A DNA stretch of 64,000 nt from Vicinamibacterales bacterium. Lineage in GTDB: Bacteria > Acidobacteriota > Vicinamibacteria > Vicinamibacterales > UBA2999. Below are positions 5,025-34,782 of this stretch, piece after piece (the first letter of the stretch is position 1; every line of letters begins with the position of its first letter). The DNA is taken from positions 107,374-171,373 of the forward strand of contig JAWKHS010000005.1 of the NCBI GenBank assembly GCA_041394705.1, in the 5' to 3' direction. The position numbers and the translations under genes are program-made. Under the pieces are notes generated by a model. It was not told the origin of the DNA, made no database searches, and saw only the letters and a list, made by a program, of their open reading frames with translations.

Positions 5025-5732
5025 TCAGCCGGCGGGCGGGTCGGCGGCGCCCATCCGGCCGAGGATGATTTGCTGCCGCCGGAGGAGGCGCCGCGTCGGC
5101 CTCGCGGGGTTGTGCACGCGGGGATTGATGATGGCGCCCGCCATCAGCGCCGCCTCGGCCGGCCCGAGATCGGCCGCCGACTTCCCGAAATACGCGCGGG
5201 CCGCCGCCTCGCACCCGAAGATGCCATCGCCCCATTCGATCGAGTTCAGGTAGATCTCGAAGATGCGCCGCTTGGACAACGCCGCCTCGAGCCGCCGCGT
5301 GATGATGAGCTCGATCAGCTTGCGGGTCGGATTGCGCGACGGCGACAGGTACAAGTTCTTCGCCAGCTGCTGCGTGATCGTGCTGGCGCCGCGCAGGGCC
5401 ACGCCGTCCTCGAGGCTCGATTCGATCGATTCCCGCAGCTGCTGGTAGTCCACGCCTTCGTGCTGGAAGAACGCGCTGTCCTCCGCCACCAGGACCGCCC
5501 GCTTCAGCTGCGTCGAGATCCGTCCGTAGGGCACCCACCGGCGCCGCAGGGTGAACGTCCTGCCGTCGCGCCGGGCCTCGTCGCGCCGCAACTCGATGAA
5601 CGCGGTGGTGTCGGGATTCTGCGAGACGAGGACGCGCACGTCGGGCAGGGTGAGATAGACGTACGCAATGTAGGCGAACGCGACGCCGAGGGCGCCGGCG
5701 ACCCAGCGGGGCCATCGGGAGCTGCGCGCCAT
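5025..5732 (-). CDS. mtgA: monofunctional biosynthetic peptidoglycan transglycosylase (GT51)
   Basis: 235-aa ORF with an N-terminal membrane anchor. GT51 motifs are present: EDSAFFQHEGVD, GASTITQQLAKN, RKLIELIITRRLE, KRRIFEIYLNSIEWG. TATAAT lies 8 nt upstream of the ATG. Confidence 0.9.
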   Translation of the reverse strand: MARSSRWPRWVAGALGVAFAYIAYVYLTLPDVRVLVSQNPDTTAFIELRRDEARRDGRTFTLRRRWVPYGRISTQLKRAVLVAEDSAFFQHEGVDYQQLRESIESSLEDGVALRGASTITQQLAKNLYLSPSRNPTRKLIELIITRRLEAALSKRRIFEIYLNSIEWGDGIFGCEAAARAYFGKSAADLGPAEAALMAGAIINPRVHNPARPTRRLLRRQQIILGRMGAADPPAG

Positions 5733-5789
5733 TCCCGGGGATTATAGGGCGCGCTCGCCTCCGGAGGCGCCTGCCGCCGCGCGCCAGCG

Positions 5790-7259
5790 TCAGCCAGCGA
5801 CGACGATCTTCAGGCGCGTGCCGGCGGGAGGCTGGACGTTCACGGCGAATCCGTTCATGAGCGCCAGCCGCGACGCGGACACCAGGCCCTGTCCCGCGCG
5901 CTGGGCGATCGACTGCCAGGAGTCGTCGGCCCGCGACGTGTAGAGCGCGATCTCGTTGGGCCGGATGTTGGAGGCCTCGCGGGTCGACAGCTCGCGGAAC
6001 GACCGGAGGGCCGCGTCGAACTCGGCGTCGACGCTCGGGAACTCGGCCTCGGGCGCGACGCCCGCCACCATGTACACCTGGCGCCCGACGGGCAGGTGGG
6101 CGGCGCGCAGGCGGACCTTGCCGATCTCGCGGGCCTTGCCGTGATAGAGCCCGACGAACGCGTCGATCCCGTTCACCTGCTCGACGCCGCCGCTGTCGAG
6201 CGTGAAGCCCAGCCCGCGCATGTGCCGCCTGGCCCCGTCGGCGAGGGATGGGCCGCGTGCCGCGTCCGCCGCCCGCAGCACCATCAGCACCGTGCCGCCG
6301 TCGGGTTCGGCGATGACCTGGTCGCTGGTGTTCTGGACCGTCCAGGCCTCCGGGAAGTCGATGGCGATGCGGAGATCGGGGTGCAGGAAGCGGTGTCCGC
6401 GCACGACCCCTTCCGCCGGGTTGTCGCCATACGCCATCCCCGCCACGTGCTGCAGAAAGTCATCCCGGTTGCGCGCGCGTTCGCCGCCGTCGGCCGCCGC
6501 CGCGACCGGAGTGGCCTTCGCCACGCGGGAGCCAGGATCTGGATGGGTCGACAGCCAGTTCGGGATGCCTCGCTCGCTGAGGGCGTCGAGCCGAGACAGG
6601 GTGGCCAGGAAGCGCGGCACGGCGTTCGGATCCCAGCCGGCCTTCGCTGCATACTCGACGCCGAGCCGATCCGACTCGAGCTCGTCGTCGCGGCCGTATT
6701 TCAGGAAGAGCGTTCCCAGCCCCATCGAGGCCACGTCGCGGAACGGCGCGACGCCGGGAATGAAGATGCTGGCCAGGAGCACGCCGAGCGACCCGCCCGC
6801 GGAGCGCGTGTACTGCTGCGAGGCGTGGCGCGCCGTGACATGCCCCACTTCGTGCCCGAGGACGCCCGCCAGCTCGGACTCGTCGCCCAGATGCGCCAGC
6901 AACCCGCGTGTGACGTACACGTAGCCCCCAGGCAGGGCGAACGCGTTCACCACGGGGACGTCCACCACGGTGAACGTCCAGGGCAGCGTGGGACGGTGTG
7001 AGACGGCGGCGATCCGTTCGCCCACGCCGCTGACGTAGCGCTGCAGCGCCTCGTCGTGGTAGACGCCCATCTCCCGACGGATCTCCGCGTCGCCCTGCCT
7101 GCCGAGGGCGATCTCCTCGGCCTCGCTGATGAGCGTCACCTCGCGGCGCCCGGTGACGGGATTGGAGGCGCAGGCCGACGCGACCAGCACGGGGAGCACC
7201 AGCCAGGCGAGCCGTCCGCGGCGCCACGCAGCGGAGGAGATGCGAGTCGTTCGGACCAT
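5790..7259 (-). CDS. M48 family zinc metalloprotease lipoprotein with C-terminal LysM-like domain
   Basis: The track ORF runs 5790..7358. The internal ATG at 7259 gives MVRTTRISSAAWRRGRLAWLVLPVLVASACASNP (lipobox) and has GGAG 9 nt upstream. The HEVGHV zinc motif is present. The C-terminus (YTSRADDSWQSIAQRAG...LALMNGF...GTRLKIV) resembles LysM. Confidence 0.85.
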   Translation of the reverse strand: MVRTTRISSAAWRRGRLAWLVLPVLVASACASNPVTGRREVTLISEAEEIALGRQGDAEIRREMGVYHDEALQRYVSGVGERIAAVSHRPTLPWTFTVVDVPVVNAFALPGGYVYVTRGLLAHLGDESELAGVLGHEVGHVTARHASQQYTRSAGGSLGVLLASIFIPGVAPFRDVASMGLGTLFLKYGRDDELESDRLGVEYAAKAGWDPNAVPRFLATLSRLDALSERGIPNWLSTHPDPGSRVAKATPVAAAADGGERARNRDDFLQHVAGMAYGDNPAEGVVRGHRFLHPDLRIAIDFPEAWTVQNTSDQVIAEPDGGTVLMVLRAADAARGPSLADGARRHMRGLGFTLDSGGVEQVNGIDAFVGLYHGKAREIGKVRLRAAHLPVGRQVYMVAGVAPEAEFPSVDAEFDAALRSFRELSTREASNIRPNEIALYTSRADDSWQSIAQRAGQGLVSASRLALMNGFAVNVQPPAGTRLKIVVAG

Positions 7260-12034: not shown

Positions 12035-12266
12035 TTGTTGGCCGACCGGCCAAGATGTTGGCCGATCGCCTTTCTTACCGCTTTCATCGAAGAAAGCGGG
12101 AGGTTTGCACGCAGATTTTGCGATCGTCGCAGTTTCTGCGGCAGCAGCCAATCCGTTGACCGGCTGCGCCGTTCGGGGAGCGCCCCGAGACCGGCTGCCA
12201 TCCTAGGCCATCAAGTTATTTCAGTTCAACAACTTAGGGGCAGACTCCGGGCGCGAAGCCCGAGGG

Positions 12267-12282
12267 TGGCACTCACCCTGCC
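12267..12282 (+). promoter_or_regulatory. sigma-54 (-24/-12) promoter candidate TGGCAC-N5-CTGC
   Basis: TGGCACTCACCCTGCC has GG at 12268-69 and GC at 12280-81, so the spacing is GG-N10-GC. It lies 24 nt upstream of the ATG at 12305, with GGAG at 12295-98. A sigma-54 activator is encoded in the same locus. Confidence 0.6.
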
Positions 12283-12304: not shown

Positions 12305-12514
12305 ATGGACAGCAGCACCCAGGACCTGACCGGCTTCCCGTCCGCCCCTCAGTTGGGACGCAGCGTGTCCATCGAACGCGCCGCCGAGATTCTCGGCGTC
12401 TCGCGGAGAACTGTTTACTACCGCATCAGCGAAGGCGTCCTGCAGACCATCCGCACCAGGGGTGGTTCCCAGCGGGTCGTCGTGGAGTCGCTGACGGCGC
12501 CAGAGAAGCACTAG
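12305..12514 (+). CDS. small helix-turn-helix (excisionase/MerR-type, HTH_17-like) DNA-binding protein
   Basis: Internal ATG of track ORF 12023..12514, preceded by GGAG. The 69-aa product is MDSSTQDL...SIERAAEILGVSRRTVYYRISEGVLQTIRTRGGSQRVVVESL, the classic excisionase-family HTH. Confidence 0.7.
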   Translation: MDSSTQDLTGFPSAPQLGRSVSIERAAEILGVSRRTVYYRISEGVLQTIRTRGGSQRVVVESLTAPEKH

Positions 12515-12540: not shown

Positions 12541-14226
12541 ATGACTCGTCGCCTCCTTGCCGTCATCGCTGCTCTCGCAATCGCCGTTCCGGCGGCCGCC
12601 GCGGGCTCGCAGCGGCGTGCTCGTCTGTCTGCCGACCTCCGAGCGGAAGTCGGCCGGGGGAACACCAACACCGTGCAGGTGATCGTCGACGGCGACGACG
12701 CGACGATCAGCCGCATCCTGTCGCGCCACCCGCTGGACCTCAAGCGGCGGCTGCGCCACGGCGCGGTCGTCGAGGTGCCTGCGGGCCAGCTCGACGCCCT
12801 GGCCGGCGACCTCGACATCGGCAAGCTCTCGTCGAACGCGCTGGTCACGTCGCACATGGCACTGACCACGGCGACGACGGGCGCCGACGCTGCCCTCGCG
12901 GGCCTCGTCGAGACGCTCGGCGCCGTGAACGGCTCGGGCGTGGGTGTGGCCGTGATCGACTCCGGCATCGCGCGCCACCGGTCGCTGAACGGGAAGGTGA
13001 TCGCCCGGGTGGACTTCACGGCCGACGGGCGTGGGCGCGACGGCTACGGCCACGGCACGCACGTGGCCGGCATCGTCGCCGGCAGCGCCCTGCCGGGACG
13101 CAACGGCGGCGCGGCGGGCATGGCCCCCGGGGCGAACCTGATCGACCTTCGCGTGCTCGGTGACGACGGCTCTGGCGACGTCGCCTCCGTCATCGAAGCC
13201 GTCGACTGGGCCGTCGAGAACCGCGGCCGCTACAACATCCGCATCATCAACATGTCGCTCGGCACCGCGGTGACGCAGTCCTACAAGGACGACCCGCTGG
13301 ACCAGGCCGTGGAGCGCGCCGTGCGCGCGGGCATCCTCGTGGTGGCATCGGCCGGCAACCGCGGCCAGACCGAGGACGGCCGCATCGTGATGGGCAGCAT
13401 CACGGCCCCCGGCAACTCCCCGTACGTCCTGACCGTCGGCGCCGTCCGCGCCAACGGGACGGTCGGCCACGAAGACGACACGCTGGCCCCCTGGAGTTCC
13501 CGCGGTCCGACGCTCTACGACTACGTCATCAAGCCCGACATTGCGGCCCCCGGCAGCATGATCACGGCCGCTGGCGTCGACGGCTCCACCCTGGCCCAGA
13601 TTCGTCCGGACCGGCTCATCGGCCGCGGCGCGAACGCCTACATGACGCTCAGCGGCACCAGCATGTCGGCGGCCGTCGTCAGCGGCGCGGCGGCCCTCCT
13701 GATCGATGCGAACCCCCGCCTGACGCCGCTTGGCGTCCGCCTGGCTCTTCAGGCCTCGGCCGACTTCCTGCCCGACGCCGGCCTCCTCGGCGCGGGCGCG
13801 GGCGACCTGAACCTTGCCGGCGTGCTGCGCGACGGCGCCAAGCTGCCTACCCGCACGACGGCGGACCTCTTCCCGGTCAGCTGGGGCGTGAAGGTCAACC
13901 AGGAAATCGTCAACTGGAGCGGCGTCCGCGGTGACGCGTTGGTGTGGGGCGACACGCTGGTCTGGGGCGACGCGCTGGTCTGGGGCGACGCGCTGGTGTG
14001 GGGCGATACGCTGGTGTGGGGCGACACCCTGGTGTGGGGTGACACGCTGGTGTGGGGCGACACCTTGGTCTGGGGCGACGCGCTAGTCTGGGGAGACACC
14101 TTGGTCTGGGGCGAGGCGCTGGTGTGGGGCGACACCTTGGTGTGGGGCGACTCAATCATCTGGGGCAATTCCATCATTTGGGGCAATTCGATCATCTGGG
14201 GCAACTCCATCATTTGGGGAAACTGA
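12541..14226 (+). CDS. secreted S8 (subtilisin-family) serine peptidase with C-terminal Trp-hexapeptide repeat tail
   Basis: 561-aa ORF. The signal peptide is MTRRLLAVIAALAIAVPAAAAG. Catalytic triad contexts are VAVIDSGI (Asp), GHGTHVAG (His) and SGTSMSAAVVSG (Ser). The last 98 residues are 16 tandem hexapeptides. Confidence 0.92.
   Translation: MTRRLLAVIAALAIAVPAAAAGSQRRARLSADLRAEVGRGNTNTVQVIVDGDDATISRILSRHPLDLKRRLRHGAVVEVPAGQLDALAGDLDIGKLSSNALVTSHMALTTATTGADAALAGLVETLGAVNGSGVGVAVIDSGIARHRSLNGKVIARVDFTADGRGRDGYGHGTHVAGIVAGSALPGRNGGAAGMAPGANLIDLRVLGDDGSGDVASVIEAVDWAVENRGRYNIRIINMSLGTAVTQSYKDDPLDQAVERAVRAGILVVASAGNRGQTEDGRIVMGSITAPGNSPYVLTVGAVRANGTVGHEDDTLAPWSSRGPTLYDYVIKPDIAAPGSMITAAGVDGSTLAQIRPDRLIGRGANAYMTLSGTSMSAAVVSGAAALLIDANPRLTPLGVRLALQASADFLPDAGLLGAGAGDLNLAGVLRDGAKLPTRTTADLFPVSWGVKVNQEIVNWSGVRGDALVWGDTLVWGDALVWGDALVWGDTLVWGDTLVWGDTLVWGDTLVWGDALVWGDTLVWGEALVWGDTLVWGDSIIWGNSIIWGNSIIWGNSIIWGN
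13930..14223 (+). repeat. in-frame tandem repeat, 16 x 18 nt (+6 nt), encoding (G-D-[AT]-L-V-W)x12 then (G-[DN]-S-I-I-W)x4, G-N
   Basis: I read the repeat unit by unit: ggtgacgcgttggtgtgg / ggcgacacgctggtctgg / ... / ggcaactccatcatttgg / ggaaac. Differences between units are almost all synonymous: ggc/ggt/gga, gac/gat, ctg/ttg/cta, gtg/gtc, atc/att, tcc/tcg/tca. Confidence 0.95.
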
Positions 14227-16562
14227 AGCCCGAGCGTTGCCACTTCGAGAATTACTGGGCAGCGAGCACTCGACTGCCGTCGTAGGAACCCGAGGTAATA
14301 TATGAAGCCGCTCATCATCTGGGGCGAGTAGCCAACCGTTTCCTCCCGCTGTGGTAGACACTCGTCGTAGCGCCATCGGTCGTGTCTACCTCTGGGCGGT
14401 GCCGGCGGCCGGAATAGGGACGTTGGCGTGGGCTGTCACTGACCTCCTAGCCCATTCCCCGTCCCCTTACTGGATCGCGCTGGCGACTCTGACCGCCCTT
14501 ACCGGCTCGTTCACGGTAAAAATTCCTGGCATGGTGGCTCGGCTGTCGGTTTCCGAGCCATTCGTCTTTGCGGCTGCCCTCCTGTTTGGCCCCGCCGCTG
14601 GCACTGCTACGGTAGCGATCGACGCGTGCGTCATGTCGCTTCGGCTAATGCCGAGCTTGCGGACGCCTCACCGTGTTCTGTTCAACGTCGGCACCCTGGT
14701 ACTGTCGGTCGCGAGCTCTTCGTGGGTATTCTTCATCCTTTCTGGCATTGACCCGCGGGCACCGGAATACCCTTCAGTCGACTCCTTTATCTGGCCGCTT
14801 TACGCCTTCAGCGCTTGCTGCTTCTTTGTGAACAGCGGGTTGGTTGCGCTGGCGTTAAGCGTCGAGCGCAAGAGCTCGCCCGTAACGATCTGGCGAGAGC
14901 AGTTCATGTGGCTTTCGGTGAACTACTTCGCCGGCGCTTCGGTGGCTGCGCTCATTGTCGTCTTCGCCCGAACTGTCGACGTCGCGATACTTGGAATCGT
15001 CATTCCGCTGATTGCCATTTCTTACCTAACATTCCGCACAACCCTGGGCCGTCTAGACGACGCAAACAAGCACCTTGGCGACTTGAATTCGCTATACCTG
15101 TCGACCATCGAAACGCTCGCGATGGCGATCGACGCCAAGGACCAAGTGACCCACAGTCACATCCGCAGGGTACAGCGATACGCCACCGGCCTAGCGCGCG
15201 CGCTGGGAATACAAAACGAAAAGCAAGTCAAAGCAATCGAAGCGGCAGCACTCCTGCACGACATGGGCAAGCTGGCAATCCCTGAGTTCATATTGAACAA
15301 ACCCGGCAAGCTCACTAGTCGGGAGTTCTCGGTGATGAAGACCCACGCAGCCGTCGGGGCTGACCTGTTGTCGTCTATCCGGTTTCCTTACCCCGTCGTG
15401 CCAATCGTGAGACACCATCACGAGAACTGGGATGGAAGTGGCTATCCGGACGGCCTCCGCGGTCCCGCAATTCCAATCGGAGCCAGGATCCTCGCCGTTG
15501 TCGACTGCTACGATGCTCTTACTTCTCATCGACCGTACAGGCCAGCGCTCTCGGCCAGTCAAGCCCTAGAGATTCTGACGCAGCGGCGCGGCAAGATGTA
15601 CGACCCACTGGTCGTCGATGCATTTGTTCGCGAGCATGCCTCACTGAGCACGCAGGCCGAGTTGCAGGACTTCCCAACCGTTCTGCTCGCGACTCAGGCG
15701 GACGCCACGCCTGAACCCATTGACGACAAACTTGAGCAGCAAGACACGCCAATCGAGTCGCTGCGCCTTCTGGCCAGCGTGTCGGCGTTTCCAGGAGGTC
15801 CTCCAACTCGAGTCGTGTGCCGGCAGCTTGTCGACAGCTTGCACGCACTCGTGCCGTTTGACACGGCGGCTGTGTTCGTCCTTAGCGAGGCTTCAAGCGA
15901 TGCCGAGGTGCTGTATGTCGATGGCTCCGCCGCGCATGTCCTCACCGGGCAGCGTATCCCGATAGCGGAGCGCCTCACTGGCTGGGTTGCTGCACACCGG
16001 ACGGCGGTGTGGAATTCGGACGCAAGGCTTGATCTTGGACCGATGAATGCGAGCACCACGCTTTCGCTCGGCTCCAGCCTGCCGCTCTACCAGAACGAGA
16101 CTCTCTTTGGCGTGCTCTCGCTTTACGGTCGCCCCGAGCACGAGATCACCGTTGGCCAGCGACGCGCGCTGGAGTCATTGCTTCCCATTCTATCGGCACA
16201 CATTGGCGATTCCCTGGCACGTCCTGGTACTGCGATTGACTGCACCGCACCGCAGCCTCGAGAGGCAGCTTTGTCTGCGCTTGAGTCGCTGCTTTCACAC
16301 AATCGCCGCAGCAGCTCTGAGGACGCGGTTGCAATCGTGGCCGTCGCGATGTCTGCGCTAGTTTCAGACGGTGCGCCGCAGAATTCACTAGAAGCAGCGA
16401 CCCGGACTCTTGCGGTTCGGCTTTCGCCAACCGTCGCATCAAAGCGATGTGTTCTAAAGATTGCCGATGGGCATCTGCTCTTGTGCGGACTGGATAGCGT
16501 GGACGCCACCGAACTTGAGCAAGAAGTATTGACGGCGGCGAAAGTCTCGGCCCTGCAGCCAT

Positions 16563-19466
<2,904 letters not shown>

Positions 19467-30299: not shown

Positions 30300-31724
30300 T
30301 CAGCGGGCGTGCGCGACGTCGTGCACGACGTCGTAGTAGTAGCGCACGAACCGGTACAGCTCCGATTCGTTGATACGTTCCTGGTCGCTGTGGGCGCCGA
30401 ACCCCTTCGGGCCGTCCTCCACGTCGATGGCGGGCCCGACGCCGTAGCACTGCACGCCCTTCGCCCTCAGGTAGGCCATGTCGGTGGCGCCCGTGCTCAT
30501 CGTCGGCAGCGTCAGCACGTTGTAGTGCTTCTTCACGCCGGCCTCGATGGCCTCGAACATCTCTGTGTTCAGGCGCGAGACGCCGTTCGGACGGACGTCG
30601 CGGGCGCCGAAGGACACCTCCACCGAGGGGTCGTTGACCACCTTCTTGACCATCTCGAGGAAGGCCGCCGGATCCTGGTCGGGCATCATCCGCACGTCGA
30701 GCGTGGCCGAGACTTCCGACGGGATGACGTTGGTCCGGTAGCCGGCCTGGATCATGGTCGGTGAGATGGACGTCCGGATCGTGGAGGCGTGCCGGGGTTC
30801 GTTGTCGAGGAGGTACTCGTCGGCGGCGTCCTGGGCCTTCGGATCGCTGGCGTTCAGGATGGCGCGATAACGCTCGGCCGAGGCCGGATCGGAAATGGTC
30901 GCCAGGCGCTTGAAGTAGGCGGCGGTGGTCTCGTTGAAGCTGATGGGCGGCTTCCACTTGGCCACGGTCGAGACGGCCGTCGACAGCTTCACCACGGCGT
31001 TGCTCCTGAGCGGTACCGACCCGTGGCCTGCCGTGCCGCGCGCGGTGAGGGTGATTGCCCGCGGAATCTTCTCCAAGGTCTGGATGGACGCGAACGTCAC
31101 CTTCTCCTTCTCCCGGTTCAGGCTGCCGCCCTCGGCCAGGCAGTACTCGGCGTCGATCTTGGGGAAGCGCTCGGGCTCGGTCATGTGGGCGATGCCGTAG
31201 CGGACCGCACCTTCCTCGCCGGCCTCGAACAGGGCGATGACGTCGCGGTCGAGCTGCACGTTCTGGCGCTTGAGCAGCACCATCGCCATGATGGTGGCCG
31301 TCACGTTGTCCTTGTCGTCGACGGTCCCGCGGCCGTAGATATAGCCGTCGGCCCGGTCGGCGCTGAACGGCGGATGCGACCACTTCTTGGCGTCGATGTT
31401 CACCGTGTCGGTGTGGGCCATGAGGAGGAGCGGCCGCTTCCGGCCGGAACCCTTCAGGCGCGCCACGAGGTTCGGGCGATTGGCCTCAAGCGCAAACGTC
31501 TCGGTCGGGATGCCCTCCTGCTCGAGGACCCCCCGGATGTAGTCCACGACGGGCTTCTCGATGCCGGGCGGCGTCGTCGGCGGGTCCGTCGAGTCGATCC
31601 GGACGATGGACTGGAAGTGCTTCAGCGTCTCGGCATCGGCCGCCGTCCAGTCGATCGCGGGCCCTTGAGCCGAGGCGACAGCCACGGCTCCAGCCACGGA
31701 AAACAGGAGTGCCAGTCTACGCAT
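30300..31724 (-). CDS. exported M20/M25/M40 family metallopeptidase
   Basis: 474-aa ORF. The signal peptide is MRRLALLFSVAGAVAVASAQG. M20 motifs are present: LLLMAHTDTV, GRGTVDDKD, ALFEAGEE, and GATD in the C-terminal part. TGCTACCAT lies 7 nt upstream of the ATG. Confidence 0.9.
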   Translation of the reverse strand: MRRLALLFSVAGAVAVASAQGPAIDWTAADAETLKHFQSIVRIDSTDPPTTPPGIEKPVVDYIRGVLEQEGIPTETFALEANRPNLVARLKGSGRKRPLLLMAHTDTVNIDAKKWSHPPFSADRADGYIYGRGTVDDKDNVTATIMAMVLLKRQNVQLDRDVIALFEAGEEGAVRYGIAHMTEPERFPKIDAEYCLAEGGSLNREKEKVTFASIQTLEKIPRAITLTARGTAGHGSVPLRSNAVVKLSTAVSTVAKWKPPISFNETTAAYFKRLATISDPASAERYRAILNASDPKAQDAADEYLLDNEPRHASTIRTSISPTMIQAGYRTNVIPSEVSATLDVRMMPDQDPAAFLEMVKKVVNDPSVEVSFGARDVRPNGVSRLNTEMFEAIEAGVKKHYNVLTLPTMSTGATDMAYLRAKGVQCYGVGPAIDVEDGPKGFGAHSDQERINESELYRFVRYYYDVVHDVAHAR

Positions 31725-31872
31725 GCGCGGGATGGTAGCACGGGGGTTTGCCGTGCTCGCCCGGCCGAGCTCAGCGCCAAAATGCGTCGGTGGATCGACA
31801 AAATTGTCAGCTCAACCGCAAAATGACGCCGCGCCGACACCCGTACGCCGGGGTCTCGACGGGCCCCGCAGG

Positions 31873-31888
31873 TGGCAAACGCATTGCA
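31873..31888 (+). promoter_or_regulatory. sigma-54 (-24/-12) promoter candidate TGGCAA-N5-TTGCA
   Basis: TGGCAAACGCATTGCA has GG at 31874-75 and GC at 31886-87, so the spacing is GG-N10-GC. It is a near-consensus match, 17-23 nt upstream of the ATGs at 31905 and 31911 of the PilZ gene. It overlaps the GTG at 31872 used by the ORF track, which argues against that start. Confidence 0.6.
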
Positions 31889-31904
31889 AACTCGTCAGCC
31901 CGTC

Positions 31905-32693
31905 ATGTCCATGTCGCCCCGTGTCGGAATAGCGTGCCCTCGGCCCACTGAGCGCGCCGCCATTTCCGAGTGGTTGAGTGCAGCCGGCTTCGAGCCGCTC
32001 GTTCTGGTCGATGCCTGCTTCGTGACCACCGAAATTTCGGGGCCCCCGCCCGTTCTGGTTGTCGCCGACGCCAAACTGCTGTCGGCCCAGTTCATCAACG
32101 CCCTGCGCAAAGGCGATCCCAACCGTCCAATCCTGGCCATCGGCGATGCCGGGGACCCGAACGAGCCGGCCCTGACCCGGAAGGGCGTGGCGTTCCACGT
32201 CCGCCCGTTGGACGAGCAGGCGCTGGTGCTCGCCGTCTCGCTGGCGCAGGCCGAGAACCGGCATGCCCGCCGGTCCGCGCGACGCACGCTCCCCCGGCTG
32301 GCGTCTTCGATCGAAGGGGCGCCCGCGGTCCTGCTCGACGTCAGCAACGAAGGCCTCCGGCTGGAGATGGATTCCAAGGGTGGCGTCAAACTCCTGCCGC
32401 AGTTCCTGGTGCACGTGCCCATCCTGAAGATGGCCGTGCCGGTCCAGCGCGTGTGGGTGCGGTCGGCGGCGACCGACGCCGGGCGCCGCGTACAGTGCGG
32501 GGCCTCCCTGCTGGCTCCGGACGAGCGGACGCAGCGGATCTGGCAGCGCCTGGCGATGCCCGGCACGCGCATCGTCACCGAGCAGCCCGCGCGCGTCGGC
32601 GCCGAGGGCCTCTTCGGCCGCGTCTCGAACCTGATCGCTCAGGCGCCCATCGTCGGCTCGCTGGCCCACCTGCCCTGGCGCGGCCGTTCGTAG
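31905..32693 (+). CDS. PilZ domain protein with N-terminal receiver-like (degenerate REC) domain
   Basis: PilZ c-di-GMP motifs are present: RRSAR (RxxxR) followed by LLDVSNEGLRLE (DxSxxG). The N-terminal 120 aa have a CheY-like alternation (PPVLVVADAKLL ... PILAIGD) but lack the N-terminal acidic pair. The start is ATG 31905 or 31911. The track start GTG 31872 is unlikely. Confidence 0.75.
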   Translation: MSMSPRVGIACPRPTERAAISEWLSAAGFEPLVLVDACFVTTEISGPPPVLVVADAKLLSAQFINALRKGDPNRPILAIGDAGDPNEPALTRKGVAFHVRPLDEQALVLAVSLAQAENRHARRSARRTLPRLASSIEGAPAVLLDVSNEGLRLEMDSKGGVKLLPQFLVHVPILKMAVPVQRVWVRSAATDAGRRVQCGASLLAPDERTQRIWQRLAMPGTRIVTEQPARVGAEGLFGRVSNLIAQAPIVGSLAHLPWRGRS

Positions 32694-32786
32694 CCCCAGC
32701 CGTGCCGGTGCAGGCGCACGCAGGGCGGCGCAGCGACACAAGTATTACAGTCGCCTCGCGCGTGACTTGCTAGTGTAGGCGTCGCG

Positions 32787-33692
32787 ATGCAGCCCATCTC
32801 CACCATCTACGGCCGCAAGGCGGCCACCGGCCTCAACTGGATCACCTTCATCGCCATGACGGCGTACCACATCGGTGCCGTCGCGGCCTTCTTCTACATC
32901 GACTCGGGAGCCATCCTCGCCGCCGCGTTCCTCTGGTGGCTGAGCGGCAGCCTGGGCATCGGCATGGCGTACCACCGCCTGCTCACCCACCGCGGCTACA
33001 AGTGCCCGAAGTGGGTCGAGTACTTCCTCACCCTCTGCGGCGCGCTCGCGCTGGAGGGCGGCCCGATCTTCTGGGTGGCGACCCACCGCATCCACCACCA
33101 GCTATCCGACAAGGACGGCGATCCCCACACGCCGAAGGAAGGCGCCTGGTGGGCGCACATCGGCTGGATCATGTTCGGCAAGGCGATGCACCACGACACC
33201 GAGATCCTGAAGCGCTACGTGCCGGATCTCAGCAAGGACCCGTTCCACGTGGCCCTCACGAAGTGGCACTGGGTGCCGCAGGTGGTGGTCGGCCTCATCC
33301 TGCTGGCGATCGGCGGCCTGCCCTACGTCCTGTGGGGCGTCTTCTTCCGCACCACGCTCGGCCTGCACGCGACCTGGGCCGTCAACTCGGCCACCCACAT
33401 GTGGGGCTACAAGACGTTCCGGACGCGCGACGACTCGCGCAACCTCTGGTGGGTCGGCCTCATCGCCTTCGGCGAGGGCTGGCACAACAACCACCACGCG
33501 CACCCGGTCTCGATGCGCCACGGCCTGGCCTGGTACGAGTTCGACCTGAACTACATCCAGATCAAGCTGCTCGAGAAGCTCGGTCTGGCCTGGGACCTCA
33601 AGGTGGCCCGCCGTCCGAAGGACGCCTCCGAAATCGTCCCGCAGGAGACGCCGGACGCCGTGGACATCTCGGAAGCGGCGCCCGTAGGATAG
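32787..33692 (+). CDS. acyl-CoA/acyl-lipid fatty acid desaturase (delta-9-type, membrane)
   Basis: 301-aa ORF with the three histidine boxes HRLLTH, HRIHHQLSD and GEGWHNNHHAHP, plus four TM segments. Confidence 0.92.
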   Translation: MQPISTIYGRKAATGLNWITFIAMTAYHIGAVAAFFYIDSGAILAAAFLWWLSGSLGIGMAYHRLLTHRGYKCPKWVEYFLTLCGALALEGGPIFWVATHRIHHQLSDKDGDPHTPKEGAWWAHIGWIMFGKAMHHDTEILKRYVPDLSKDPFHVALTKWHWVPQVVVGLILLAIGGLPYVLWGVFFRTTLGLHATWAVNSATHMWGYKTFRTRDDSRNLWWVGLIAFGEGWHNNHHAHPVSMRHGLAWYEFDLNYIQIKLLEKLGLAWDLKVARRPKDASEIVPQETPDAVDISEAAPVG

Positions 33693-33715: not shown

Positions 33716-33729
33716 GCTGAATGCTGAAG

Positions 33730-33765
33730 GAGCCGGCACCGGTGGGTGCCGGCTCTTTCTTTTCC
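33730..33765 (+). terminator. rho-independent terminator of the desaturase gene
   Basis: GAGCCGGCACC-GGTG-GGTGCCGGCTC forms a perfect 11-bp stem with a 4-nt loop, followed by TTTCTTTTCC. It lies 38 nt after the stop codon. Confidence 0.8.
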
Positions 33766-33834
33766 TCGCTCTCCAAAGTCAACCTGCGCAGCCGCGACGC
33801 CCGGGCGGATGGCAAAGGGCTGTCCCGAAACCCG

Positions 33835-33859
33835 AGCCCCGGGCCCCGGGCCCCGCCCT
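33835..33859 (-). repeat. right arm of the inverted pair (reverse complement AGGGCGGGGCCCGGGGCCCGGGGCT, 23/25 identical to the left arm)
   Basis: Compared by hand. The only mismatches are two T/C positions. It ends 5 nt before the TACAAT box of the histidine-kinase gene. Confidence 0.8.
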
Positions 33860-33876
33860 CTGACTACAATCCCTCC

Positions 33877-34782
33877 ATGACCCGCCGGCAGTCGGCCACC
33901 GTCGCGTTCATCGTCCTGTGCGTGGTGCTGGTCGCCGCGGCGGTGTCCCTGAACGTCGGCTGGATCCTGAGCGGCGAGCGGCACGTCGCGATGCTGGTGT
34001 TCGGTGTCGTGGCGTTCGCCCTCATCATCGCCGGCATCATCATCTACACGGTGTTCCTGGTCCGCGAGCTCAGGCGCACGGAGCAGCAGGACAGCTTCCT
34101 GAACGCCGTCACGCACGAGTTGAAGACGCCGATCGCGTCGATCCGGCTGTACCTGGAGACGCTCCAGGCGCGCGAGACCTCCGAGGCGCAGCGCCAGGAG
34201 TTCTACAAGGTCATGCTCGACGACACGACGCGCCTCCAGTACACGGTGGAGCAGGTGCTGAGGGCCGGCGTGGCCAGCCAGCGCCGCAAGCTCGCCCACC
34301 GGGCGCCCGTGGACCTGGCGACGCTGGCGGTGGAGTGCATCGAGACGACGCGGCGCCGGCACCACCTGGCCGACGAGGCCGTCACGCTCGCGGCGGCGCC
34401 CGCGCAGGCGATGCTGGTGGACGGCGACGCCGACGAACTGCGGACGGCCATCGGCAACCTGCTCGACAACGCGGTCAAGTACTCGGCCAAGGCCGTCCGC
34501 GTCACCGTGGAACTGGCCTCGCCGGCGCCGGACACGCTGTGGGTACGCGTTCGCGATCGCGGCGTGGGCATCCCGCGCCGCCAGTTGCGCCGCATCTTCA
34601 ACCGCTTCTACCGTTTCCAGGCCCGTGGCTTCAGCGTGAAGGGCACCGGCCTGGGCCTCTACATCGTGCGGTCGATCGCCAGACAGCACGGCGGCCGCGT
34701 GTTCGCCGAGAGCGCGGGCGAGGGCACCGGCGCGACCTTCACGCTCGAACTGCCCAAGCTCTCGCCCGGGACGGCCTCGTGA
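33877..34782 (+). CDS. sensor histidine kinase (2 TM, HisKA + HATPase_c)
   Basis: Internal ATG at 33877 (MTRRQSATVAFIVLCVVLVAAAV...). The track start at 33721 lies inside the terminator hairpin. The kinase boxes are present: H-box VTHELKTPIASI, N-box LLDNAVKYS, G1 RDRGVGIP, G2 GTGLGLYIV. TACAAT lies 6 nt upstream. Confidence 0.9.
   Translation: MTRRQSATVAFIVLCVVLVAAAVSLNVGWILSGERHVAMLVFGVVAFALIIAGIIIYTVFLVRELRRTEQQDSFLNAVTHELKTPIASIRLYLETLQARETSEAQRQEFYKVMLDDTTRLQYTVEQVLRAGVASQRRKLAHRAPVDLATLAVECIETTRRRHHLADEAVTLAAAPAQAMLVDGDADELRTAIGNLLDNAVKYSAKAVRVTVELASPAPDTLWVRVRDRGVGIPRRQLRRIFNRFYRFQARGFSVKGTGLGLYIVRSIARQHGGRVFAESAGEGTGATFTLELPKLSPGTAS

Follow-up and report, generated by a model that had tools for sequence, protein, structure and literature searches.

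A candidate sigma-54 promoter with helically spaced upstream sites in front of a receiver/PilZ gene of Vicinamibacterales

How is a receiver/PilZ gene switched on in a Vicinamibacterales bacterium, and do the A-rich repeats lying upstream of it take part in the switch? This question is raised by a locus in a 64-kb window, the window being the whole stretch of DNA that was analysed (64,000 nucleotides). A first-pass annotation of this DNA had proposed that a near-consensus sigma-54 promoter drives the gene, and that helically phased A-tracts in front of it bend the DNA. We examined both proposals by comparing the window with orthologous and paralogous loci.

The element at 31873-31888 and the gene behind it

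The sequence TGGCAAACGCATTGCA, at 31873-31888 on the plus strand, has the layout of a sigma-54 -24/-12 element, with GG at 31874-75 and GC at 31886-87. Its coordinates, its GG-N10-GC spacing and its single mismatch to the consensus TGGCAC-N5-TTGCW all agreed with the first-pass annotation. It was the sole exact match to TGGCA-N6-TTGCW on both strands of the window, where dinucleotide shuffles gave 0.10. The blocks TGGCA and TTGCA were invariant in 20 orthologous Vicinamibacterales loci (the window and 19 further loci, namely 18 from genome contigs plus L056), the 6-nt spacer between them varied, and the same ATG followed TTGCA after 16 nt, or after 17 nt in L008. Neighbouring proteins are 80-90% identical among these loci, so the orthologues are fairly close relatives; their agreement therefore partly reflects shared ancestry, and the independent support comes from the paralogues. 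The latter share 30-40% identity and stand in differing genomic contexts, and nearly all of the 33 have TGGCAC/T-N5-yTGCA 12-17 nt before the start codon; GG-N10-GC with consensus flanks is present at this distance in 26 of them. Across all loci, 100 sigma-54 sites scoring at least 12 were found in 856 kb of strand; about half of them are promoters of this family, which arithmetically leaves a background of ~0.06 per kb of strand. Invariance in the orthologues and recurrence in the paralogues bear out the earlier call, and 31873-31888 is very probably a genuine sigma-54 (-24/-12) promoter of the receiver/PilZ gene beginning at ATG 31905. We infer its sigma-54 dependence from these patterns of sequence.

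The gene itself (31905-32693, plus strand, with a conserved start at ATG 31905) encodes 262 aa, predicted to form a degenerate receiver and a PilZ-like domain; its homologues have 265-267 aa and start at the equivalent ATG. Pfam at E 0.01 returned no domain in the 262-aa protein, the receiver PF00072 included; the PilZ family PF07238 scored 13.4 bits against a cut-off of 22.5, and was matched at an E-value of at most 1 by 11 of 21 members. A receiver match in Pfam was present in some paralogues. A sequence-profile search of the PDB gave noise only, with E-values near 0.5. In a Foldseek search with the AlphaFold model (pLDDT 81, first beta strand at residues 6-10), the N-terminal half matched the CheY fold (4hnr, CheY4, E 7e-6, TM-score 0.76 normalised to target) and the C-terminal half matched a PilZ protein with c-di-GMP bound (3kyf, E 9e-5). 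The motifs RxxxR and DxSxxG, present as RRSxR and DVSxEG, were invariant in 48 sequences. The receiver pocket is incomplete according to alignment A3: Asp55 is kept, the DD pair after the first strand is absent, and Arg100-Pro101 stands where Lys-Pro is expected. The modelled product would thus be a degenerate receiver joined to a PilZ-like domain and resembling c-di-GMP receptors. It shares with the Receiver-PilZ c-di-GMP receptors (PF07238) a CheY-like N-terminal fold, a PilZ-like C-terminal barrel and both motifs, but differs from them in falling below the Pfam thresholds for both domains.

Upstream motif sites and rival readings of them

The repeats CAAAATG, CAAAATT and CAAAATG start at 31778, 31799 and 31819, with spacings of 21 and 20 nt, at the positions described by the first-pass annotation. 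They are the sole three copies of CAAAATK on both strands of the 64 kb, all within a 48-nt stretch, against an expectation of 1.02 per window. The stated rarity of A4 runs held as well, since the plus strand of the window has eight runs of at least four A and three of them are here. An expectation-maximisation search without prior bias, run on the 140 nt upstream of 51 promoters and scored by a position-weight scan, recovered a 10-bp motif, TKACGRTTYT. A column profile without gaps, aligned at the -24 element, was tried and rejected: offsets of 1-2 nt and strand flips blurred the motif. Its centres are fixed at ~49.5, 70.5 and 91 bp upstream of TGGCA, i.e. in steps of 20-21 bp, in orthologues and paralogues. 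Match offsets were -91 to -93 and -73 to -78 in the orthologues, and -75 to -78 and -51 to -53, or -95 to -99, in the paralogues. Matches of at least 12 bits numbered 33 in the 3.4 kb of fixed-offset zones compared to 29 in the other 425 kb; since these counts come from the very regions used to train the motif, the independent evidence here is its positional fixity.

Two of the CAAAAT copies fall within such sites. Upstream site 1 (GCCAAAATGCGTCGGT, 31776-31791, no strand assigned) includes copy 1, and its motif match is CGACGCATTT on the minus strand at 31780-31789, centred ~91 bp upstream of the T of TGGCA and roughly at -117 from the predicted start. Its score in the window is weak (6.8 bits), and 15 of 19 loci of the orthologue set have a motif match at -91 to -93; the site is a conserved block in alignment A2. 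Upstream site 2 (31797-31809, no strand assigned) contains the palindrome GACAAAATTGTC at 31797-31808 and includes copy 2. At 14.7 bits, its match TGACAATTTT on the minus strand (31800-31809, centre ~70.5 bp upstream of TGGCA and roughly at -96 from the predicted start) is the best TKACGRTTYT match of the whole window. Matches at -73 on the minus strand or at -76 to -78 on the plus strand were found in 16 of 19 orthologue-set loci, and the plus-strand position -75 to -78 was matched in 19 paralogues. Within site 2, A 31798, C 31799 and G 31806 are invariant in A2. The third copy of CAAAATG (31819-25) is part of a 17-nt direct repeat on the plus strand (31809-31825) that is 82% identical to the site-1 region 31768-84. 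It gave no TKACGRTTYT match in the motif scan, has decayed to CAAGTGG in L001, the closest relative, and is missing from every other orthologue; it is probably a non-functional or lineage-specific duplicate. The notion that the CAAAAT repeats are protein-binding sites thus stands for copies 1 and 2, which lie in a fixed, helically phased and conserved motif, but not for copy 3.

A further motif copy lies at the promoter itself. The sequence AAACTCGTCA at 31888-31897, which is TGACGAGTTT on the minus strand, overlaps positions -11 to -2, and a 13-nt repeat (CAAAATTGTCAGC from 31799 and CAAACTCGTCAGC from 31887, 85% identical) links this region to site 2. At the corresponding offset of +15, motif matches of at least 6 bits were detected in 13 of 19 orthologue-set loci, the distant L033 has a match of 14.7 bits, and L047 has the identical 14.7-bit match ~15 nt after a candidate -24 element. 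This copy over the -12/start region may be a candidate operator. Elsewhere in the window, ATTTTGCG, the reverse complement of CGCAAAAT, is indeed present at 12115-12122, as the first-pass annotation had noted, in front of the other sigma-54 promoter, which lies at 12267. As a site common to both promoters it was rejected: its distance of -152 is off all fixed positions of the family, and there is no motif match of at least 9 bits upstream of 12267.

The fixed steps of 20-21 bp suggest that the upstream sites are enhancer sites for a putative activator. Because they are 20-21 bp apart, sites 1 and 2 lie on the same face of the helix, and the TKACGRTTYT sites have what is expected of an enhancer, namely repeated specific sites ~80-150 bp upstream of the start whose placement follows the helix face. 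From their position and conservation, we consider it likely that the upstream sites are protein-binding sites tied to the promoter at 31873-31888; that the protein which would bind them is an enhancer-binding protein has about an even chance. The motif is, to our knowledge, unlike the sites of the activators NtrC, NifA, FleQ and AtoC.

The phased sites could instead bind a conventional factor, for example the OmpR-type regulator encoded two genes downstream, which would modulate or repress the promoter, in part through the copy overlapping the start. Ten-bp direct or inverted units at 20-21 bp are also typical of winged-helix regulators, the histidine kinase and OmpR-type regulator are syntenic in all orthologues, a motif copy covers -11 to -2, and no enhancer-binding protein gene is linked to the locus. 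Sigma-54 promoters, however, require an AAA+ activator. Sites at ~-75 to -117, quantised in helical turns, occupy the classic position of an enhancer, and the motif-bearing paralogues do not adjoin this histidine kinase/OmpR two-component system. We thus regard a conventional factor as unlikely.

Could the upstream sites belong to the neighbour? The divergent M20 peptidase gene has an extended -10 element, TGCTACCAT (31732-31740, minus strand), 7 nt before its ATG (31724-31722); the ATGGTA of this element is invariant across the 19 sequences of A2, and the M20 transcript is predicted to be leaderless. The two genes share an intergenic region of just 180 bp, their arrangement is kept in all orthologues, and the centres of sites 1 and 2 are ~58 and 78 bp from the M20 ATG at 31724, so the sites might serve an activator or repressor of the M20 gene. 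The intergenic length, however, varies from 177 to 192 nt in the orthologues, yet the distance from the sites to the -24 element is constant, and paralogues with unrelated upstream neighbours have the motif at the same distances from -24. A role in M20 regulation therefore appears improbable.

The curvature proposal of the first-pass annotation holds that three helically phased A4 tracts bend the upstream DNA and replace IHF in delivering the activator. The tracts do exist, at 31779, 31800 and 31820 with intervals of 21 and 20 nt, and such runs are uncommon in this DNA; they amount to at least three tracts phased with the helical repeat, and vector addition at 10.5 bp per turn puts them ~96% in phase. 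This resembles the A-tract curved DNA found upstream of other promoters, with the difference that the window tracts lie in a conserved sequence-specific motif and are not conserved as tracts. The 120 nt upstream are devoid of A4 and T4 runs in L005, L010, L013 and L017, T4 replaces the A4 of the window in L002-L004 and L006-L009, and no orthologue, not even L001, shares the third tract. The conserved bases are the flanking ACG/GTC, which points to recognition of sequence. Short A-tracts bend DNA by ~10-18 degrees each and IHF by ~160 degrees; three A4 tracts would thus give roughly 30-50 degrees at most. Phased bending in place of IHF accordingly finds no support in the comparison with the orthologues, and we give it little credence. 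The A4 runs would rather be the A/T-rich part of TKACGRTTYT than a device for curvature.

Even less probable is a sigma-70-type promoter formed by TCGACA (31795-31800), 18 nt and CAAAAT (31819-31824), with a leader of ~74 nt in which TGGCA...TTGCA would be a transcribed regulatory element or operator. This pair was the sole match to 9 of 12 consensus positions in 31500-33000, and shuffles gave 0.0. The -10-like hexamer, however, reads CAAGTG in L001 and is lacking in the other orthologues, conservation across the intergenic alignment is lowest in the would-be leader, and no Rfam family matched 31600-32100 at permissive thresholds. Nor would such a promoter explain why exactly the sigma-54 consensus positions are conserved in both orthologues and paralogues.

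Transcription start, leader and translation

Under the sigma-54 promoter reading, the position of the transcription start can be predicted, since sigma-54 promoters have a fixed geometry and start ~12 nt downstream of the GC. With C31887 as -12, +1 would fall at ~31899, in a predicted start zone of 31897-31902 on the plus strand. The ATG at 31905 stands 17 nt from C31887, which gives a predicted leader of ~3-8 nt; in paralogues with a gap of 12-13 nt the predicted leader is 0-2 nt. The very short leader anticipated by the first-pass annotation is therefore reproduced by the geometry, and it is fairly likely that the leader of the receiver/PilZ mRNA does not exceed 8 nt.

This depends on the choice of the start codon, as GTG at 31872 has also been used and ATGs are present in frame at 31905 and 31911. 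The reading in which TGGCA...TTGCA is kept because it encodes an N-terminal extension (MANALQTRQPV) translated from GTG 31872 finds favour with some gene callers, which lengthen homologues in this way (e.g. P0005, P0023, P0043 and P0062), and the extension aligns at the amino-acid level, but this reading is ruled out by in-frame stops (TAG 9 nt before the ATG in L005, TGA at -24, inside the spacer, in L011 and L012) and a 1-nt frameshift in L008, quite apart from the CTG found instead of GTG/ATG at the would-be start (-33) in L004, L005, L007, L008 and L010 and the ATG start of most database homologues (265-267 aa). GTG 31872 is thus not the start codon, in line with the earlier preference for the ATGs.

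No GGAG-like or Shine-Dalgarno sequence was found in 31889-31904. A start codon 12-17 nt after the -12 GC leaves no room for a ribosome-binding site, and leaderless mRNAs bypass the usual one. Before candidate start codons, TANNNT peaked at 6-7 nt with 23 and 20 counts, compared to ~1-2 per offset elsewhere, and Shine-Dalgarno-like motifs were barely enriched; leaderless-type starts thus appear common in this lineage. We also infer where the receiver/PilZ mRNA starts and how it is translated, in this case from promoter geometry and the lack of a Shine-Dalgarno sequence.

Leaderless mRNAs with a sigma-70-type -10 element 6-7 nt before the start codon are familiar from Actinobacteria and Deinococcus. 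The receiver/PilZ gene resembles them in having no Shine-Dalgarno sequence and a start codon at or a few nt from the predicted 5' end, and the classical TANNNT-N6-7-ATG arrangement is found at many genes of this genome too. It differs from them in that the promoter is of the sigma-54 type and the predicted leader is not strictly zero. A keyword search of the literature returned no report of sigma-54-driven leaderless transcripts, and nothing relevant on RpoN in Vicinamibacter or sigma-54 in Acidobacteria, absences that count as weak evidence. With its predicted leader of 3-8 nt, the receiver/PilZ gene would not be strictly leaderless; extra 5' nucleotides reportedly lower the binding of ribosomes to leaderless mRNA in E. 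coli.

A model for the locus and for the paralogue family

Sigma-54 promoters require an AAA+ activator and stay silent until this ATPase switches them on. A 967-aa ORF at 16563-19466 combines a Sigma54_activat domain (210 bits) with a GAFTGA loop and HTH_8. Activators of the GAFTGA type work with sigma-54 only, and this ORF thus indicates that the genome has sigma-54 machinery. A sigma-54-like site with one mismatch at 17476 was discarded, as it lies inside the coding region of this activator gene. Six-frame translation of the window and of 55 loci revealed no ORF with an RpoN box, and no enhancer-binding protein gene was found within 4 kb of the receiver/PilZ promoter in the 18 orthologous loci L001-L018; the nearest such gene in the window is ~12 kb away from it. 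The locus can be compared to the well-known systems glnAp2/NtrC and nifH/NifA, with which it shares a -24/-12 element (TGGCAC-N5-TTGCW, GG-N10-GC), a pair of repeated or dyad sites on a common helix face ~100 bp upstream, and an AAA+ activator with GAFTGA and HTH_8 in the genome. It departs from them in that the activator gene is not adjacent, the sites occupy positions quantised at 21 bp across a whole family of paralogues, and the start codon follows the -12 GC by 12-17 nt.

Taking these observations together, our best explanation as a whole, to which we assign a probability of about 60%, combines a sigma-54 promoter, phased enhancer sites and a short leader. Sigma-54 RNA polymerase would rest on 31873-88 as a closed complex. 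A putative enhancer-binding ATPase, not encoded next door, would bind the two sequence-specific sites, with centres at ~31782-85 and ~31802-05, 20-21 bp apart and ~117 and ~96 bp upstream of the predicted start. From there, the activator would touch the polymerase and open the promoter. Transcription would start ~12 nt after the GC, near 31897-31902, and yield an mRNA whose 3-8-nt leader lacks a Shine-Dalgarno sequence; this mRNA would be translated in a leaderless-style manner.

In Vicinamibacteria, many receiver/PilZ paralogues have this same architecture, a pattern suggestive of a single regulon. In its full form this idea is tentative, and we give it somewhat less than an even chance: each receiver/PilZ paralogue would have its own sigma-54 promoter starting at or near the start codon, and all would be controlled via a shared TKACGRTTYT enhancer at helically quantised positions, giving leaderless mRNAs. 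The promoter type itself is already known; a family-wide set of near-leaderless sigma-54 transcripts would be a novel variant of it. If this is true, the enhancer would set expression almost wholly, post-transcriptional control would have no 5' untranslated region to act on, and the combination of sigma-54 with leaderless mRNA would make an exceptionally clean on/off switch. Such a family would, in addition, open a first way into sigma-54 and c-di-GMP signalling in Vicinamibacteria, abundant and barely studied soil Acidobacteria, in the form of a defined promoter, an enhancer motif with which to fish for the activator, and more than 50 target promoters. Should no more than the ordinary part hold, what stays is a well-supported prediction of a sigma-54 promoter, with the idea of A-tract curvature dropped.

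A terminator scan found none in 31500-33000, and the receiver/PilZ gene may be co-transcribed with the desaturase gene. The desaturase gene has a -10-like TAGTGT of its own, 10 nt before its ATG.

The divergent locus and the receiver/PilZ gene

The promoter and the upstream repeats lie within a 180-bp divergent intergenic region (31725-31904), flanked on the left by an M20 peptidase gene (30300-31724, minus strand; Pfam Peptidase_M20) and on the right by the receiver/PilZ gene (31905-32693, plus strand). The window has a G+C content of about 71% and belongs to the Vicinamibacterales (Acidobacteriota), judging by related loci and the homologues of its proteins. Most homologues of the receiver/PilZ protein have 265-267 residues, and their start codon corresponds to ATG 31905; GTG 31872 is artefactual, since high G+C lengthens ORFs. 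The AlphaFold model of the protein, computed from an alignment of 48 sequences, reaches a mean pLDDT of 81. In its N-terminal half the model matches receiver domains of the CheY type (4hnr, E 7e-6), and in its C-terminal half a PilZ protein whose crystal structure contains c-di-GMP (3kyf, E 9e-5); RxxxR and DxSxxG, the signature motifs of PilZ, do not vary. The label REC-like/PilZ, assigned previously, therefore holds, with a Pfam PilZ score that is only sub-threshold (13.4 bits versus 22.5). The receiver domain looks degenerate: its first strand is not followed by an acidic pair, and the expected Lys-Pro is Arg-Pro.

A search limited to one genome per species yielded 18 orthologous loci, all with the same gene order, and a metagenome contig supplied one further orthologue. 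The conserved order comprises a D-amino-acid-oxidase-like gene and the M20 peptidase gene, and divergently the genes for the receiver/PilZ protein, a fatty-acid desaturase, a histidine kinase and an OmpR-type regulator. Across the 18 loci (L001-L018), identity to the window is 48-73% in the receiver/PilZ protein for most orthologues, and 75-91% in the M20 peptidase, desaturase, kinase and regulator encoded around it. The receiver/PilZ protein evolves faster than its neighbours, yet the promoter blocks are invariant.

Conservation of the predicted sigma-54 promoter

The first-pass annotation had called a sigma-54 promoter at 31873-88, and every coordinate it gave was right when rechecked against the sequence. 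The element, TGGCAAACGCATTGCA, is the sole exact TGGCA-N6-TTGCW in the window (0.10 expected). TGGCA-N6-TTGCA is found in all 18 orthologous loci and in the further one, 16 nt before the ATG (17 nt in locus L008); the 6-nt spacer and the intergenic DNA around the element are divergent. Besides the orthologues, the one-genome-per-species search recovered 35 more distant relatives (27-40% identity) whose genomic contexts are unrelated, and nearly all of these carry TGGCAC/T-N5-yTGCA directly upstream of the conserved N-terminus M-x-D-R-P-R-V. All loci together, 856 kb of strand, contain 100 sites of this quality, and about half of them are family promoters. These paralogues are independent support for the predicted promoter. 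With its blocks invariant in orthologues and recurring in paralogues, the earlier call stands, and we put the probability that 31873-88 is a sigma-54 promoter at roughly 85%.

The 967-aa ORF at 16563-19466 combines a Sigma54_activat domain (210 bits), a GAFTGA loop and a Fis-type HTH. Judged from this ORF, the genome has sigma-54 machinery; rpoN was not found within the window. The ORF is an unproven candidate activator for the receiver/PilZ promoter. At the sequence level, the element behaves as a standard enhancer-dependent sigma-54 promoter, of which it appears to be a well-supported further example. Unlike in textbook promoters of this class, the activator is unlinked, the enhancer motif is common to the whole paralogue family with positions quantised in helical turns, and the start codon abuts the promoter.

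Phased sites upstream of the promoter

The three copies of CAAAAT(G/T) (starting at 31778, 31799 and 31819) are all that the 64 kb contain on both strands, against 1.02 expected per whole window, and three of the window's eight plus-strand runs of A4 or longer lie at these repeats. With match positions left free, expectation-maximisation over the 140-nt stretches preceding 51 promoters recovered the motif TKACGRTTYT. Measured from the T of TGGCA, it is located at -91 to -93 and at -73 (minus) or -76 to -78 (plus) in orthologues, and at -75 to -78 and -51 to -53, or -95 to -99, in paralogues. Matches of at least 12 bits number 33 in 3.4 kb of fixed-offset zones versus 29 in the other 425 kb, a count that is circular for the motif's existence and not for its position. 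Site 2, TGACAATTTT (minus strand, 31800-09; 14.7 bits), is the top match of the whole window; site 1 (31776-31791) scores 6.8 bits here and higher in other orthologues.

The phasing of 21 and 20 nt, proposed in the first pass, is thus real and conserved, as the motif recurs at fixed offsets in orthologues and paralogues. Site centres fall near -49.5, -70.5 and -91; the 20-21 bp between neighbouring centres equal two helical turns. The A-tracts, by contrast, are not conserved. Although 31776-31812 is a conserved block in the orthologue alignment, TTTT replaces the AAAA of the window in seven orthologues, and four have no A4/T4 run. The third tract is specific to the window, where it forms one half of a local 17-nt duplication (31768-84 / 31809-25), and has already decayed in L001, the closest relative. 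In the predicted motif, the A4 runs make up the A/T-rich half, and the phasing would reflect two sequence-specific sites on one helix face. Their distance from the predicted start, roughly 96 and 117 bp on the upstream side, is that of classical enhancers bound by sigma-54 activators.

Binding of a non-AAA+ regulator to these sites is unlikely, and the idea that they serve the M20 gene is rather less probable still. The earlier suggestion that A-tract curvature replaces IHF is improbable: the tracts flip to T4 or vanish in orthologues, and three A4 tracts at face value would bend the DNA by perhaps 30-50 degrees (estimated from textbook per-tract values), far less than IHF does. A sigma-70-type promoter, TCGACA-18-CAAAAT, is very improbable. 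Nor is the inverted CGCAAAAT at 12115 a site shared with the other sigma-54-like promoter, since no motif match of at least 9 bits was found upstream of the latter (12267).

A GGTCAAA(T/A)CCCC block at -27 to -16 from TGGCA is conserved directly next to the -24 element in the L002-L009 orthologue subgroup only; at this place, many of the paralogues show T-rich sequence (TTTCCG/TTTCGCG). Within 170 nt ahead of the -24 element, three paralogue loci have short tandem repeats just upstream of the enhancer motif, of GGGAT/GGATC type in L025 and L027 and of ATGCCCA/GCATT type in L038.

Predicted short leaders and start site

That TGGCA...TTGCA is kept as a coding extension of the receiver/PilZ gene has almost no likelihood, since an in-frame TAG between motif and ATG in L005, an in-frame TGA inside the spacer in L011 and L012, the frameshift in L008, and CTG in five loci where the window has GTG mean that the conservation cannot be coding. 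With C31887 at -12, transcription would start near 31899, giving a predicted leader of 3-8 nt, in which there is no Shine-Dalgarno sequence. In paralogues, the -12 C lies 12-17 nt from the start codon in 26 of 33 cases (median 15), and the 12-nt gap in seven of them predicts a leader of 0-1 nt.

Among 680 candidate start codons from the window and loci L001-L055, TANNNT has a sharp peak 6-7 nt upstream (23 and 20 counts, versus 1-2 per offset elsewhere); enrichment of Shine-Dalgarno-like motifs is slight at best. These Vicinamibacterales seem to use leaderless mRNAs commonly, and the short leader fits the lineage. An extended -10, TGCTACCAT (31732-31740, minus strand), lies 7 nt before the M20 ATG and is invariant across the aligned orthologous loci, which implies a predicted leaderless sigma-70-type transcript; cysK has TAAGAT-N6-ATG. 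A family-wide near-leaderless sigma-54 architecture is plausible; no description of sigma-54-driven leaderless transcripts surfaced in the part of the literature reached by a keyword-based search. Window start codons with TANNNT include 2932, 5732(-), 8373(-), 26023(-), 33877, 47287(-), 50057(-), 50221 and 53457. The histidine kinase gene (33721-34782) probably starts at ATG 33877, preceded by TACAAT-N6, and not at ATG 33721 of the longest ORF.

The 13-mer of site 2 that starts at 31799, CAAAATTGTCAGC, recurs as CAAACTCGTCAGC at 31887-99, over the -12 element and the predicted start. This copy has the same offset in 13 of the 19 loci of the orthologue set (window included); the distant L033 has a strong copy at that offset, and L047 an identical strong copy about 15 nt after its candidate -24 element. 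It may be a putative operator for the protein that binds the upstream sites. The distant paralogues in L033 (about 5037-5888, minus) and L047 (about 5175-5939, minus) adjoin a sigma-54-activator-like gene with the loop GSFTDA instead of GAFTGA, and their candidate -24 element is GGGCA.

Within the window, an HD_5 (HD-GYP-type) and GAF protein (14351-16675) is encoded directly upstream of, and overlapping, the activator ORF, and the pair (14351-19466) lies within a stretch of lower G+C (60-63%); a link of c-di-GMP turnover to sigma-54 is possible. The other sigma-54-like site, TGGCACTCACCCTGCC (12267-82), precedes by 22 nt the ATG of a gene for a 69-aa HTH_17 protein (12305-12514), with GGAG in the predicted leader. 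The subtilase-like ORF at 12541-14226 has about 20 C-terminal tandem LVWGD(T/A) repeats, followed by IIWGN repeats.
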